Part shown: positions 4,646-22,652 of the stretch, piece by piece
Numbering within the stretch: position 1 is the first letter of the stretch
Layout of the letters: each line of letters opens with the position of its first letter
NCBI GenBank assembly: GCA_027295745.1
Contig: JAPUKI010000389.1
Location: 1-31,005, forward strand
Source: Acidobacteriota bacterium
GTDB taxonomy: Bacteria > Acidobacteriota > UBA6911 > RPQK01 > JADFOI01
DNA length: 31,005 nucleotides
Reading direction: 5' to 3'
Program-made: the position numbers and the translations under genes
Notes under the pieces: generated by a model
The model's input: only the letters and a program-made list of their open reading frames with translations
The model's database searches: none
What the model was told of the DNA's origin: nothing

Positions 4646-4729
4646 AGACCACAGACCACAGACCACAGACCGGAAGAAGAATCCAGAATACAGAATCCAG
4701 AAGACAGAAGATTCTTGGAACCTGGAAGT
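4646..4729. repeat. Heptamer tandem-repeat locus A (kdsA-kdsD junction)
   Basis: (AGACCAC)x3+AGACC at 4646-4671; AGAATCC/AGAATAC/AGAATCC/AGAAGAC/AGAAGAT at 4678-4712; TGGAACC/TGGAAGT at 4716-4729. Confidence 0.9.
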
Positions 4730-5578
4730 TCACTCCTGGTCTTTGACCAGGCGGTCAATTTGTTGCAACTGGCTTAAAACATTCTTCACTTCATCGATTA
4801 ACAAGGCGTTGGCGCCGTCACTGAGTGCCTTGTCAGGTCGATCATGGACTTCGATAAAAACGCCGTCCGTTCCCACCGCCACTGCGGCTCTTGCCAGATG
4901 AGGAATGAACTCGGCCTGTCCGCCGCTCGCCCCACCCGCCCCACCTGGCAGCTGCACACTATGGGTGGCGTCAAAGACGACCGGGACACCCAGGGCTCGA
5001 ATGATGGGAAGAGACCTAAGGTCCGACACAAGGTTATTGTATCCGAAGGACACGCCTCGCTCTGTGAGGATTATTCGAGAGCCTTCCACCGAGCGGGCCT
5101 TCTCCAAAACATGCTGGACATCCCCGGGGGCCATAAACTGGCCCTTCTTGATATTGACGATCTTTCCGGTGGAGGCGGCGGCCAGGATTAAATCGGTTTG
5201 CCGGGAAAGCAAGGCCGGAATCTGCAGCACATCCAGCACCTGGGCCGCTGGTTCGACTTGAGCTACCTCATGGACATCGGAGAGCACAGGAATCTTGAGA
5301 TCCTGACTCACCCGCTGGAGGATTCCCAGGCCCTTCTCCAATCCAGGCCCCCGATAAGAGTGGATCGAGGTACGATTGGCTTTGTCGTATGAGGCCTTGA
5401 AAATAAAAGGGATCTTCAGGCCGGAAGTGATCTCTTTCAACCGCCCGGCCATGTCCATGCAGTGCGCCTCACTCTCAATCACACAGGGACCGGCAATCAA
5501 AAAAAAGGGGTTGTTGCCACCAAGTTTCCAGTTCCCCAGGGAAATCACGGGCGTTGGTGTCATCAATCGACTGGTCAC
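4730..5578 (-). CDS. kdsA: KDO 8-phosphate synthase
   Basis: IAGPCVIES, KASYDKANRTS, NIKKGQF, ERGVSFGY, DATHSVQ and EVH motifs. Confidence 0.96.
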   Translation of the reverse strand: MTSRLMTPTPVISLGNWKLGGNNPFFLIAGPCVIESEAHCMDMAGRLKEITSGLKIPFIFKASYDKANRTSIHSYRGPGLEKGLGILQRVSQDLKIPVLSDVHEVAQVEPAAQVLDVLQIPALLSRQTDLILAAASTGKIVNIKKGQFMAPGDVQHVLEKARSVEGSRIILTERGVSFGYNNLVSDLRSLPIIRALGVPVVFDATHSVQLPGGAGGASGGQAEFIPHLARAAVAVGTDGVFIEVHDRPDKALSDGANALLIDEVKNVLSQLQQIDRLVKDQE

Positions 5579-7233
5579 TACCGCACTTTCCCGACCGGGC
5601 TCTCTGACACGACTGAGGACATTTTCTCACCAGTTCGTGACAATCTAAACTCGGCGGCGGCCTTGATAAAGCTCTCAAAGAGCGGATGAGGCTTAAGCGG
5701 TTTGGACTTGAATTCGGGATGAAACTGACAGGCTAAGAACCACGGATGATCCTCGAGCTCCACGATCTCAACAAAGTTTTTGTCAGGGGAGTTACCAGAA
5801 ATTTTCAGACCGTAACTGGTGAGAAGTTCCTCATACTCCCGGTTAAACTCATAGCGGTGTCGATGACGCTCGGAGATCTCTCCTTCTCCGTAAACACGGA
5901 AAGCCAGAGAATCCTTCTCTAAAACACAGGGGTAAGCTCCCAGCCGCATCGTTCCACCCATGTCCCCAACTCCCAACAGTTCCCGCAGTTTATAAATGAC
6001 GCGGTGTGCAGTGGAACTATCAAACTCCGAGCTATGAGCATCCAGCGAGCACACGTTCCGGGCAAATTCAATCACTGCGCACTGCATCCCCAAACAGAGG
6101 CCCAAAAAGGGGACTTTGTTGACTCGAGCATATTGAATGCCCCGAAGCATCCCATCGATTCCACGCGTACCAAACCCGCCCGGAACGAGGATACAGTCCA
6201 CGTCCTTCAGTTTACCTTCCCAATCTTCACCAACCAGGCCTTCTGATTCCACCCAATGCAGCTTGACGGCCAAGCGATGGGGGAGTCCTCCGTGCAGCAG
6301 AGCTTCATTGAGGCTCTTGTAGGAGTCCTCAAACTCCACATACTTGCCAACGATTCCAACCGTCACCTCGCCCTCCGGATTGCGAATCACCTCAACCAAA
6401 TTCTTCCACGAGCTCAGATCACACTCACTCTCAGGCAGTTGAAGCAGTTTCACGATGCTCGAGTCCAGATCTTCTTCGTGCAAAACAAGAGGGACTTCAT
6501 AGATGCTCTCAACGTTCTTCGCCGTCATAACCGCTTCGGCAGCAACATTACAAAACAGTGCGATCTTGTCTTTGATTTCCGGCGGCAACTGGCGATCCGT
6601 ACGACACAGCAGGATGTCAGCCTGAATTCCGATCTCACGCAGCTCTCTGACAGAGTGCTGTGTAGGCTTGGTTTTCAGCTCTCCCGATCCCTCAATAAAG
6701 GGGACCAGGGTGAGATGAATAAAGACGGAGTTCTCCTGACCCACCTCATTGCGCATCTGACGAATAGCTTCCAAAAAGGGGAGACTTTCAATATCCCCGA
6801 CCGTTCCTCCGATCTCCACGATGACCACATCCACGTCTTCACTCAGCCTCTTGATGGTGGCCTTGATTTCATTGGTGATGTGGGGAATCACCTGCACCGT
6901 TGTTCCCAGATAGTCTCCCCGTCGCTCTTTCTCAATAACGGTTTGATAGATCTTTCCGGTGGTGGAATTGTTGGCCCGCGATAAACGAAGATCGGTAAAG
7001 CGCTCGTAATGCCCCAAATCCAGGTCGGTTTCAGCGCCATCATCGGTGACAAAAACCTCACCGTGCTGAAAAGGACTCATGGTCCCCGGATCGACGTTGA
7101 TATAGGGATCGAGCTTCAGCAAGGTAACCTTTAGGCCCCGCGACTCCAGGAGACATCCAATAGAAGCCGAAGCGAGGCCCTTCCCCAGCGAACTCAAGAC
7201 CCCACCCGTCACGAAAATAAACTTGGTTGACAT
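5578..7233 (-). CDS. pyrG: CTP synthase
   Basis: [32 protein letters not shown] (catalytic Cys), ERHRHRYE and QFHPE motifs. Confidence 0.98.
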
Positions 7234-7244
7234 CCTTCCTCCGG

Positions 7245-20310: not shown

Positions 20311-20359
20311 TTCTTCTGTCTCCTGGATTCTTTCCCCGGTCCTATTGTAAGGTTGAGCC

Positions 20360-21391
20360 ATGATTCGAACCATTGAGTGGACCGACGATGGCGTGGTCAT
20401 GATCGATCAGCGATTACTGCCTACCGAGGAAGTTTACAACACCTATCGAAGCGTGGAAGAAGTGGCCGAAGCCATTGAGACCATGGTGATTCGAGGAGCT
20501 CCCGCCATCGGAGTTGCCGCGGCTATGGGGATCGCCCTGGGCGTTGCAAACCTGGCCTCCAAGGAAAACGTGGAGGAAAACTTCGCCGCCATTGCCCTGA
20601 GGATACAGAAAACGCGTCCCACTGCGCGCAATCTCTTCTGGGCCATTGAACGAATGGAAAAGGTCTTTCAGAAAGTCCAGGATCGCTCACTGGAAGAGAT
20701 TCAAAGCGCTATGACGACGGAGGCCGTCACAATCCATCGAGAAGACATCGAGATTAACCGCAAAATCGGAGAACATGGACAGCAACTCCTCTCAGACAAG
20801 ATGACTTTGCTGACCCACTGCAATGCCGGCGCTCTGGCAACGGCAGGCTACGGAACTGCTCTGGGTGTGGTGCGAGCGGCTGTTGAAAATGGAAAAAAAA
20901 TCCAGGTTTTCGCTAACGAGACGCGACCCTTTCTTCAGGGCTCGCGGCTGACCGCCTGGGAGATGATGAAGGAGGATATTCCCTGCACGCTCATCACTGA
21001 CAACATGGCTGGTTACTTCATGCAGTTGAATCAGATCCAAGTCGTGGTCGTGGGAGCCGATCGCATCGCCCGAAACGGGGACGTGGCCAACAAGATTGGA
21101 ACGTATACAGTGGCTGTTCTGGCCAGGGAACACCAGATCCCTTTTTATGTTGCAGCACCTCTTTCCACCATTGACCTGGATACGCCGACTGGGGAGGGCA
21201 TTCCCATCGAGCAGCGAAACATCCAGGAAGTGACCGAGATTAAGGGCCAGGTCATTGCGCCCGCTTCCGTCTCCGTCGCCAATCCGGCCTTTGACGTCAC
21301 TCCCAATCGGCTCGTCTCCGCCATTATCACGGAAAAAGGGGTCGCCACAGATCCCTATGGAGAGTCGATCCCGGCACTATTCGAGAAATGA
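20360..21391 (+). CDS. mtnA: S-methyl-5-thioribose-1-phosphate isomerase
   Basis: [53 protein letters not shown] and NPAFDVTP motifs. Confidence 0.96.
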
Positions 21392-22458
21392 TTGTCCTGG
21401 GTATTGAGTCCAGCTGTGACGAGACGGCCGCAGCCCTGGTCAGGGACGGCCAAACCATTCTCTCCAGCGTGGTGGCCTCACAAATTCCCATGCACGCCGC
21501 TTTCGGTGGTGTGGTTCCTGAGCTGGCGAGCCGCGAGCACGTCGAGAACATCTGCTTCATCATCGAGAAATGTTTACAGGAGGCAGACATGACCTGGAAG
21601 GACATCACGGCCATTGCAGTGACACGGGGACCGGGCCTAATGGGCGCGCTGATGGTCGGCATGGCTTACGCAAAGGCACTGGCCTTTGCCGTGAAAATTC
21701 CTTTTGTGGGAATAAACCACCTGGAGGGACATCTCTGTTCTATTTTCCTGGATCATCCCGATGCCGAGCTGCCCGCCCTTTCTCTGGTGGTCTCGGGAGG
21801 ACACACCAGCCTCTTTCATCAGAAGGAGCTGGGGAGCTATCAGGAGATTTCCAGAACTCGAGACGATGCTGCCGGAGAAGCCCTGGACAAGCTTTCCAAA
21901 TACTTAGGCTTAGGCTATCCCGGAGGACCGGTCATAGATCGACTGGCGCCTCAAGGGGATCCCCACAGTGTTGCCTTTTCGATACCGAAAATCAGCGACG
22001 GCAGCCTCGATTTCAGCTTCAGTGGGATCAAAACAGCCGCCTTGCGTCACATCAAGCAGCACGATATTTCCCCGCTGAAGCGGAGTGTTTCAGAGAATTC
22101 TGACCTGGTGCCCCAGCCGATTCTGGATCTTCTGGCCAGCTATCAAAGCTCCATTGTGGATCAACTATTGGACCGCTTGAAGAAGGCACTGAGAGGCAGA
22201 GATGTCCGTTCCATCCAAATCTCGGGAGGAGTAGCCGGTAACAGTGAACTGCGCCGGCGCGCCCGGGAATTTTTCCAGGAGCGGGGACTTCCCGTCTACT
22301 ATCCCCGATCCGAGCTGACCACGGATAACGCCGCCATGATAGCGGCTGCTGCTACTGCTCGACTTCAGGCTAAAGCAGCCGACCCCTGGGACCTTCGCCC
22401 CGATCCCAACTTGAAAGTGAGCGCGACGCGCTCACTTTCAAGAAATCACAAATCCTAA
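21388..22458 (+). CDS. tsaD: tRNA N6-threonylcarbamoyladenosine transferase subunit
   Basis: [55 protein letters not shown] and DNAAMI motifs. Confidence 0.97.
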
Positions 22459-22652
22459 ATCCCAAATTCCAAATAAATTCCAAATCATAAATTCCAAATT
22501 CTAAACTCAAAGCATGAAACCCTTCGAAAGACGCGAATGTCGAAATTCTTTAGAGAAATCAGTTGGGAGGTTTCAGAATTGGGATTTGTAAAGTTACCCC
22601 ACTTTCGTGGACAGTTTCTAGTTTGGGTTTTGGGATTTGGAATTTGGAATTT
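22443..22652. repeat. Heptamer tandem-repeat locus F (between convergent tsaD and brx-rhodanese)
   Basis: About nine AAATYCN-type units at 22443-22509 face TTTGGRW units at 22622-22652 (imperfect inverted pair) around a core of about 110 bp. Confidence 0.9.

Follow-up and report, generated by a model that had tools for sequence, protein, structure and literature searches.

Tandem heptamer arrays at gene junctions of a marine-sediment acidobacterium and their association with PF05635 genes

The 31,005-nt window analysed here, that is, the whole stretch of DNA under study, is the entire 31-kb contig C322 (JAPUKI010000389.1) of an Acidobacteriota metagenome-assembled genome (MAG; GCA_027295745.1, referred to below as G000; 2.87 Mb, 436 contigs, 53.5% GC, 88% complete, 5.8% contamination). 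The window carries housekeeping genes (metH, kpsF, kdsA, pyrG, kdsB, a CDF transporter gene, priA, udg, era, coaBC, gmk, yicC, an ABC exporter gene, mtnA and tsaD), and several of the junctions between them are occupied by tandem arrays of 7-nt units, which are the subject of this study. These arrays are real, confined to junctions and found genome-wide, and they resemble the short tandemly repeated repetitive (STRR) sequences of cyanobacteria; those in the window are most likely STRR-like long simple-sequence repeats of a known kind. In addition, genes of the family PF05635 are physically linked to heptamer arrays in five phyla. The CTP synthase encoded in the window (pyrG) was 78% identical to a homologue on an Acidobacteriota MAG chromosome, and nearly all next-best matches were also from Acidobacteriota. 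Sequence near-identical to the window was present in marine-sediment metagenomes of at least eight studies; the single RNA run among the matching runs contained a tenth of the words.

The original prediction, made by reading the window alone, had located arrays at six loci (4646–4729, 7999–8185, 14073–14215, 15129–15226, 19952–20310 and 22443–22652) and a two-unit remnant near 13424–13439. Tandem Repeats Finder (TRF) returned period-7 arrays at all six, with the unit sequences as given there, and the remnant (13424–13439) consisted of two CAAGTTC-type units (GGAACTT family) at the udg stop. Exactly 12 heptads in a single register filled the kdsA/kpsF junction (4646–4729), extending from the stop codon of kdsA up to 7 nt short of the kpsF ATG; by TRF and reading of the sequence, (AGACCAC)×3.7 passed into AGAATCC-type units and then into two GGAACC-type units. 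At the CDF/kdsB junction, an outer left arm of (ACAAYAG)×4.7 (7999–8035) was complementary to the beginning of the 8148–8185 arm. The inner modules (8036–8125) comprised a GC mini-hairpin with a GAA loop, an (AAATYCC)×4–5 array and a second GC mini-hairpin, and the outer right arm (8126–8185) was built of (CTCCTRY)×3 in phase with (TTGTCTR)×2–3, followed by (TGTCAGY)×3. The era/udg junction contained (AGGAGKH)×3.9 on the plus strand (14073–14099), which forms the pyrimidine-rich 3′ arm in the minus-strand mRNA, and a long arm of ca. 10 CTCCTNN units (14138–14212), which forms the AGGAGNN 5′ arm in the mRNA and codes for the final 17 residues of the Era open reading frame (ORF). Between coaBC and era, (ACCTGAC)×5 (15128–15163) ended 9 nt from the era start codon, and (TTCTGGA)×4.4 (15199–15229) overlapped the final coaBC codons.

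The divergent region between the msbA-like gene and mtnA began on the left with (AGGAGRY)×5 in phase with an adjoining (CTGACAN)×5 (19948–20019). In its middle (ca. 20058–20275), a short GGAACTT array was split by a multi-copy miniature inverted-repeat transposable element (MITE) of ca. 215 bp, and the right arm (20276–20331) consisted of a GC mini-hairpin with a GAA loop followed by (CCTCCTR/CTCCTGT)×4–5, complementary to 19948–19982. At the convergent junction between tsaD and the brx-rhodanese gene, the left arm (22443–22505) comprised ca. 8 AAATYCN units, some of them irregular, and included the tsaD stop; the right arm (22610–22652), (TTTGGRW)×5–6, was complementary to it. Two perfect hairpins (22415–22437 and 22653–22686, with 10-bp and 14-bp stems) flank these arms; they are unrelated to the arrays, overlap both ORF ends and may be the true terminators. 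Array sequence thus extended into the 3′ ends of the era, coaBC and tsaD ORFs, and several arrays stopped 7–11 nt before start codons. The description of the loci as strictly 7-periodic was too strong, since TRF gave 3%–13% indels in three arrays and three loci (7999–8185, 19952–20310 and 22443–22652) also held GC mini-hairpins, a MITE or a non-repetitive loop of 105 nt. The GC mini-hairpins were just 2-fold enriched near arrays and are therefore a weak companion. An Rfam search of the window matched no known RNA family.

Four of the six window loci were inverted array pairs that fold as long hairpins, a feature not noticed in the original prediction. RNA folding gave −63.8 kcal/mol (z = −4.6) for the era/udg hairpin, −82.6 kcal/mol (z = −5.65) for the entire CDF/kdsB locus and −102.8 kcal/mol (z = −8.4) for the whole tsaD/brx-rhodanese locus. 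Genome-wide, 68 of 422 merged array segments (16%–19%) had an inverted partner within 600 nt, compared with 1 in a size-matched control, and 26 of the 422 had a direct partner. At co-directional junctions, arrays on the stop side were purine-rich on the sense strand (64:23), and those on the start side were pyrimidine-rich (37:21). On the mRNA strand, stop-side arrays were A/C-rich and start-side arrays G/U-rich, also where the two arrays were non-complementary, for example at 15128–15229.

Arrays were counted across G000 using TRF and our own lag-p self-match detector, with an order-3 Markov simulation as the null genome. TRF returned 429 period-7 rows in G000 versus 50 in the simulated genome at a score ≥ 30, 231 versus 1 at ≥ 40 and 111 versus 0 at ≥ 50. 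Among lags of 4–15, the self-match detector found 127 arrays at p = 7, 89 at p = 14 and at most 13 at any other p; other periods were thus not equally frequent. Fully intergenic rows made up 60% of the period-7 rows, compared with 13% of the genome, and only 4 of 298 rows (score ≥ 36; ca. 1%) lay deep within predicted genes, so that the restriction to gene junctions and 3′ ends, first remarked in the window, extends to the genome. By junction type, 149 arrays were at co-directional, 67 at convergent and 42 at divergent junctions, with convergent junctions ca. 1.7-fold over-represented. Genes were predicted with our own codon-usage ORF picker, and array-to-start-codon distances are accordingly approximate. 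An 8-nt class was also real (32 TRF rows with a score ≥ 40 versus 1 simulated; main unit GCACGANN); every one of its arrays was at a gene junction, with two free positions per unit, and some formed inverted pairs. Arrays of this class occurred on contigs C81, C150, C311 and C165, among others, and at 10585–10780 of locus L110 of the genus-mate G005. Assembly artefact was ruled out, because independently assembled Logan contigs from four different marine-sediment studies spanned the window arrays. Within arrays, these contigs differed from the window in length by 7 or 14 nt (at 14073 and 14143, and by a 7-nt gap in 7999–8053). Taken together, the genome scans bore out a genome-wide junction system of STRR-like heptamers.

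A typical array contained three to five units, each with a conserved core of 5–6 nt and one or two free (wobble) positions. The final base of CTGACAN units was G (0.42), A (0.41) or C (0.15), and was T in 3 of 285 units. Run lengths of three to seven CTGACAN units numbered 38, 25, 8, 0 and 3, a roughly geometric fall-off that ruled out a sharply preferred arm length of ca. 5 units. Neighbouring CTGACAN units were identical at a frequency of 0.28, versus 0.37 ± 0.03 in shuffles, and units two apart at 0.46; the wobble base therefore alternated with a 14-nt period. This was the sole higher-order signal detected in the arrays, where no 21-nt signal was found. Of 69 neighbouring array pairs, 16 abutted in phase without a spacer, and the units formed graded in-phase series (GTGGTCT, GCTGTCT, GTTGTCT, ATTGTCT, GTTGTCA, GCTGTCA; also CAGAATC, CAGAAGC, CAGGAGG). 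When rotation and strand were considered, a single-substitution network united 46 of the 50 consensus units, and 294 of the 298 arrays, in one component. It had 82 edges, versus 23 ± 4.5 in letter-shuffled controls, the largest component of which held 18 ± 8%. AGACCAC, ACAAYAG and NCTGACA were network neighbours, and AGAATCC, AAATYCN, GGAACTT and AGGAGRN were also connected. Because units are linked by single substitutions and arrays abut in one register, the shared 7-nt period may come from descent. The unit diversity is a mutational cloud rather than a set of independent inventions; the network demonstrates only that a common period need not be invented anew for each unit. Consequently, although the period was indeed far more constant than the sequence, the original argument that a period shared by different sequences may itself be selected or generated is not supported, given the lack of independence among the units (46 of 50 in one network, graded in-phase mosaics) and the existence of an 8-nt class.

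Several of these features would be expected if the arrays were plain slippage repeats that belong to no system, nucleating by chance and growing where harmless, with any link to PF05635 incidental. In most genomes, heptanucleotides make up the most frequent class of long repeats, and a polymerase-footprint bias that would make them the easiest slippage length for the replicative polymerase has been proposed (Mrazek et al. 2007, cited in PMC4679880 and PMC4692102). The 7- and 14-nt length differences between strains, the roughly geometric CTGACAN run lengths, the single-substitution network and the in-phase mosaics are all consistent with this explanation, and it is a serious rival because most arrays are solo. 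However, recent slippage would make neighbouring units identical, which is the opposite of what was observed for CTGACAN. Slippage likewise explains neither why inverted partners outnumber direct ones (68 versus 26) nor the transcript polarity, and we consider it, on balance, an unlikely account of the whole.

To read the history of individual junctions, G000 was compared with 40 relatives (41 genomes in total, which are kin rather than independent samples), in particular with G002, a complete 3.6-Mb genome syntenic across the window with genes 91%–94% identical, and G005, a genus-mate (93% complete, 10 contigs). A three-unit CTGACAN pattern was counted 135 times in G000 and 13–104 times per genome in the six genus-mates; within the family, 11 of 14 genomes had it, and its occurrence in the remainder of the order was patchy; the reversed control pattern matched once across all 41 genomes. 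When the window was aligned by BLAST with its syntenic G002 region, all breaks fell at array loci. At kdsA/kpsF, the AGACCAC and AGAATCC arrays of the window were replaced in G002 by three AACTGAC units. The 150-nt AGGAG-armed hairpin at era/udg was lacking in G002 and G005, and G003 had a different, AGACCAC-armed hairpin at this site; the era and udg genes of G002 share a GTGA overlap, preceded by AAGGAG. No target duplication was seen when the filled and empty era/udg sites were compared. At coaBC/era, the two arrays of the window corresponded to two dispersed units in G002 and to hairpins of other families in other genus-mates, one with an 8-nt unit (CTGACCNN arms in G005). Wholly different modules occupied the CDF/kdsB junction of G002, and the AAATYCC arrays of the tsaD junction were absent from that genome. 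The msbA-like/mtnA region retained the same outer AGGAGG/CCTCCT arms in G002, where the right arm had ca. ten units and GTGGTCT was added; the window had an extra CTGACAN array and the MITE. Relative to its G002 counterpart, the Era protein of the window had 17 extra residues, and differences were also present in the tails of CoaBC and TsaD. Arrays thus change by 7-nt steps within populations and by whole blocks between close species, in both cases far faster than the flanking genes, and block turnover alters protein tails and operon coupling.

This turnover bears on two alternatives. The era/udg array may stem from a native AGGAGTG-like Shine–Dalgarno stretch, which is still seen in G002 and would suit a slippage origin; nevertheless, slippage does not account for the replacement of a full unit family at 93% flank identity, for whole hairpin inserts with their loops, or for the patchy distribution among close families with common replication machinery. 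The second alternative is that the arrays are functional cis-elements, serving either as phased protein-binding sites or as expression rheostats comparable to heptanucleotide contingency repeats; binding of S1, Csp or CsrA-type proteins has been proposed for the TAACTGA repeats of Beggiatoaceae (PMC4679880). The conserved 5–6-nt cores with one or two free positions, the near absence of T at the CTGACAN wobble position, the arrays that end 7–11 nt from start codons, the transcript polarity and the arm types kept around PF05635 genes over deep divergence (see below) are compatible with such a function. In contrast, the same housekeeping junction had different or no content in relatives that were 91%–94% identical, which argues against a conserved regulatory site. 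Furthermore, co-directional, convergent and divergent junctions all carried arrays, and many unit families occurred side by side. The suggestion in the original prediction that three units, i.e., 21 nt, could phase a binding protein was contradicted both by the undetected 21-nt signal and by the wholly different content of the same junctions in these relatives. Regulatory binding is therefore poorly supported, and we regard cis-element function as quite improbable.

Two MITEs in the window were distinguished from the heptamer system. The MITE at ca. 20058–20275 contained an internal duplicated block of ca. 40 nt and was not itself part of the system; the stretch 19983–20298 had 150 matches at other loci of G000, with a longest alignment of 230 nt, and a piece of this MITE (20061–20275) was found in G002 at the tsaD junction instead. 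A second, fold-back MITE of ca. 280 bp lay between priA and udg (13020–13300) and was not at that site in G002. Dozens of copies with 85%–95% identity occurred in every genus-mate searched, and the contig depth over it was 100–400× that of its neighbours. MITE identity was ruled out for the paired arrays, given that 12 of 28 loops had no match elsewhere and that the era/udg site lacked a target duplication.

The original prediction had recommended a search for a co-occurring gene family, and such a family was found, albeit with counter-examples among the relatives. A profile search of G000 identified two PF05635 genes (encoding the Avd-like ‘23S rRNA intervening sequence (IVS) protein’), and both were bracketed by arrays. 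The gene on contig C109 lay between a CAGGTTG array and AACCTGR/AACTTGG arrays, and the contig C71 gene had CTGACA remnants on one side and TTGTCAG arrays on the other. Only 4 of 1938 G000 genes were flanked on both sides by inverted heptamer arms, and one of these was a PF05635 gene. The gene was present in 27 of the 40 relatives. Among 25 PF05635 loci (23 from relatives and the two in G000), in a set in which many of the contigs end near the gene, 10 had inverted arrays on both flanks, 1 had direct arrays on both and 4 had an array on one side, i.e., 15 of 25 had any. In 17 of 19 PF05635 cassettes, the upstream arm was purine-rich on the sense strand of the gene, which is the polarity of the gene-less arrays. 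Within PF05635 clades, the arm type was conserved at amino-acid identities as low as 60%: in clade 1, five proteins from three families (60%–75% identical) all had AGGAG-type upstream and CTCCTGA-type downstream arms, and clade 2 had CAGGTT/GGAACT-type arms. Some of the cassettes sharing an arm type were syntenic and others were not. Most PF05635 homologues in databases were on contigs < 3 kb, which is what flanking repeats would cause.

The association extended beyond this order. In a tblastn search of 72,556 plasmids, the PF05635 protein occurred on only 26, of which 20 were cyanobacterial (mostly Nostocales) and the others from Riemerella, Azospirillum and Gemmatirosa. All eight plasmid loci that were opened (Nostoc, Calothrix, Pseudanabaena, Picosynechococcus, Riemerella and Azospirillum) had short-period arrays directly at the start and stop codons: five were clear inverted heptamers, one (Nostoc) was an inverted irregular 7–8-nt array, one (Pseudanabaena) was long and direct, and one had non-complementary heptamers. 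The direct arrays of Pseudanabaena comprised 15 and 9 units. Two of the plasmid genes lay inside cas operons (cas10/cmr3 in Picosynechococcus and cas6/cas4 in Pseudanabaena, in order of listing). The sole solved PF05635 homologue, PDB 2GSC, is XCC0516 of Xanthomonas campestris. Rehm et al. 2015 (PMC4692102) list in a supplementary table a GGGAATC repeat (no. 15) that is 6 nt away from XCC0517 and extends over the annotated XCC0516 start, an overlap not remarked on in that paper. Bracketing of PF05635 genes across phyla is a further observation left unexplained by plain slippage.

Across genomes, the PF05635 gene was present in 17 of 19 array-rich and 11 of 22 array-poor genomes, a comparison uncorrected for phylogeny in which array-rich meant at least 10 matches to either of two unit patterns and which is thus blind to other unit types. 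In random 20–40-kb samples from five complete genomes per group, period-7 runs numbered 0 in 180 kb of PF05635-negative and 4 in 200 kb of PF05635-positive genomes; this measure is too noisy because arrays are clustered, and 40 kb of the array-rich G002 likewise contained none. Our literature search found no paper linking heptamer arrays to PF05635; PMC10053308 notes only a homology of PF05635 with Avd, which partners the reverse transcriptase in diversity-generating retroelements.

This homology could suggest a dedicated repeat-writing machine, as the original prediction had also envisaged, in which a telomerase-like or retroelement-like polymerase, possibly together with the Avd-like protein, recopies a short template. 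A restricted unit vocabulary, common genome-wide and across families, would be expected from such a template, and the one variable position per unit could represent the junction nucleotide. However, no PF00078 reverse transcriptase was matched in G000 (88% complete), which also argues against a diversity-generating retroelement, and neither XisH nor XisI was found in this genome. In addition, G005 carries arrays without a PF05635 gene, and the graded unit transitions and the 8-nt class fit in-place mutation better than copying from a fixed template. A repeat-writing enzyme is thus poorly supported and, of the explanations considered here, very improbable.

Records of heptamer repeats go back to 1990 in cyanobacteria and were later extended to Xanthomonas, Beggiatoaceae and many other genomes. 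The STRR of heterocystous cyanobacteria, with units STRR1–3, were reportedly described by Mazel and colleagues in 1990, and we know of no established function or origin for such repeats. Another comparable element is the protein-coding IVS of 23S rRNA, which carries an S23p/PF05635 ORF in Leptospira and Coxiella. The G000 arrays share with STRR the 7-nt tandem units, the few copies per array, the hundreds of dispersed intergenic loci and the several unit types per genome, and a single substitution separates the Nostoc unit GGGGAYT from GGGATTT in G000. Likewise, G000 has at least three tandem copies per array at many dispersed intergenic loci, as heptanucleotide long simple-sequence repeats do. 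The G000 arrays are not STRR in the strict sense, because the pyrG relatives place the host in Acidobacteriota, in marine sediment, rather than among heterocystous cyanobacteria, and they differ further in their single mutational unit network, in-phase mosaics and 8-nt minority class. A literature search found no paper on such arrays in Acidobacteriota.

Rehm et al. 2015 (PMC4692102) described comparable repeats, GGGAATC in Xanthomonas campestris and X. axonopodis and GGGGAYT in Nostoc PCC 7120, with ca. 180 intergenic arrays per genome, mostly of ca. 4 units, pronounced variation in length and sequence among close relatives at a given junction and some inverted pairs able to form stem-loops. 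These form one G-rich family studied as G-quadruplex formers (PMC4692102), whereas G000 has many non-G-rich families. TAACTGA direct repeats in marine Beggiatoaceae, cyanobacteria and Bacteroidetes (MacGregor 2015; PMC4679880) are one substitution from CAACTGA, the commonest G000 family. They resemble our arrays in lying a few nt upstream of starts, in their 7-nt indel steps between strains, in their patchy distribution across phyla and in their mixing with other heptamers in Microcystis (PMC4679880). In Beggiatoaceae, however, there is one unit, nearly always forward with respect to the start codon, with a single inverted case (PMC4679880), as opposed to both orientations, stop/start polarity and many inverted pairs in G000.

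Intergenic mosaics of short hairpin modules with rapid turnover and possible effects on mRNA ends are also typical of repetitive extragenic palindromes (REPs), bacterial interspersed mosaic elements (BIMEs) and REPINs, but REPs are single imperfect palindromes rather than tandem arrays. A REP/BIME–REPIN identity with a REP-associated tyrosine transposase (RAYT) was rejected, since the three PF01797 (Y1-transposase) genes of G000 were flanked by other GC-rich hairpins and not by heptamers. One of these RAYT-like genes, at C70:396–3740, had repeated GC-rich hairpins of a different family on both sides, and this locus looks like a separate REP/REPIN-type system in G000. Contingency (phase-variation) repeats were likewise rejected, as the neighbours are housekeeping genes (kdsA, pyrG, era, coaBC and tsaD) and the arrays lie outside reading frames save for extreme 3′ tails.

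On the basis of these comparisons, we propose that some of the arrays are arms of IVS-type fold-back cassettes, the full form of which carries a PF05635 gene, that such blocks enter and leave gene spacers, and that slippage and point mutation subsequently cause the arrays to drift in register; we put the probability of this explanation at roughly 0.5. In the gene-bearing cassette, the loop holds a gene for an Avd-like four-helix-bundle protein of ca. 130 amino acids, with arrays abutting its start and stop. Its likeness to the rRNA IVS lies in the long stem, the loop with a small four-helix-bundle protein gene and the location of PF05635 genes between paired arrays in five phyla, although, unlike the rRNA IVS and Avd systems, the window loci are gene-less and outside rRNA, the cassettes sit between protein genes, and G000 lacks a detectable reverse transcriptase. 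The gene-less pairs and many solo arrays would be relatives or remnants of such cassettes. Arrays persist only in the few bases between genes. At the unit level, near-identical strains differ in array length by 7 or 14 nt, and point changes in units would spread in register, which would produce the seamless abutment of different arrays and the near-single mutational network. At the block level, modules (arrays, inverted pairs with their loop, GC mini-hairpins and MITEs) are gained, lost or swapped at junctions between relatives with 91%–94% identity, and they often clip the stop codon and rewrite the C-terminal tail of the neighbouring protein. The inverted pairs, which include about a fifth of the arrays, are predicted to fold in the operon transcript as very stable stems. 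By comparison with G002, these stems probably act on the transcript at era/udg by uncoupling overlapping cistrons, and by analogy with the rRNA IVS they may be candidate sites for RNase III or other processing.

Several observations weigh against the fold-back cassette explanation. Ca. 80% of the arrays are solo, without a detectable inverted partner, so that cassette arms directly explain a minority. Within the window, inverted pairing arms were present at four of the six loci, but neither a PF05635 gene nor a remnant was found in any of the six (only two matches in the genome). Partner arms were 0.889 alike, compared with 0.912 for same-family arrays elsewhere; as partners are no more alike than non-partners, there was no indication of either selection for arm pairing or recent palindromic duplication. 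Most loops between paired arms were unique, unlike those of classical MITE families, with 12 of 28 lacking a match elsewhere in the genome; the matches of the remaining loops were mostly to nested arrays or MITEs, and one loop type (with AAATYCC arms) had ca. 6 copies. Half of the array-poor relatives carried PF05635, in a test based on two unit patterns and uncorrected for phylogeny, and G005 and G010 had arrays with no PF05635 gene. Moreover, no transposase, recombinase or reverse transcriptase tied to the arrays was found in G000.

A broader form of the cassette explanation can be raised only tentatively: heptamer arrays and PF05635 could be the two halves of one widespread, undescribed system in which an Avd-like pentameric protein, encoded between paired heptamer arrays, would recognise arrays with its own type of unit, maintain them or spread them, and gene-less arrays such as STRR, GGGAATC and TAACTGA would be its footprints. 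The window shows the same phenomenon as the heptamers of cyanobacteria, Xanthomonas and Beggiatoaceae, now in an abundant marine-sediment acidobacterium, where a complete relative with 91%–94% identity allows gain, loss and replacement to be read at each junction. The bracketing of PF05635 genes in five phyla, together with the structure solved for a family member from a Xanthomonas strain rich in heptamers, provides a testable lead on an old puzzle.

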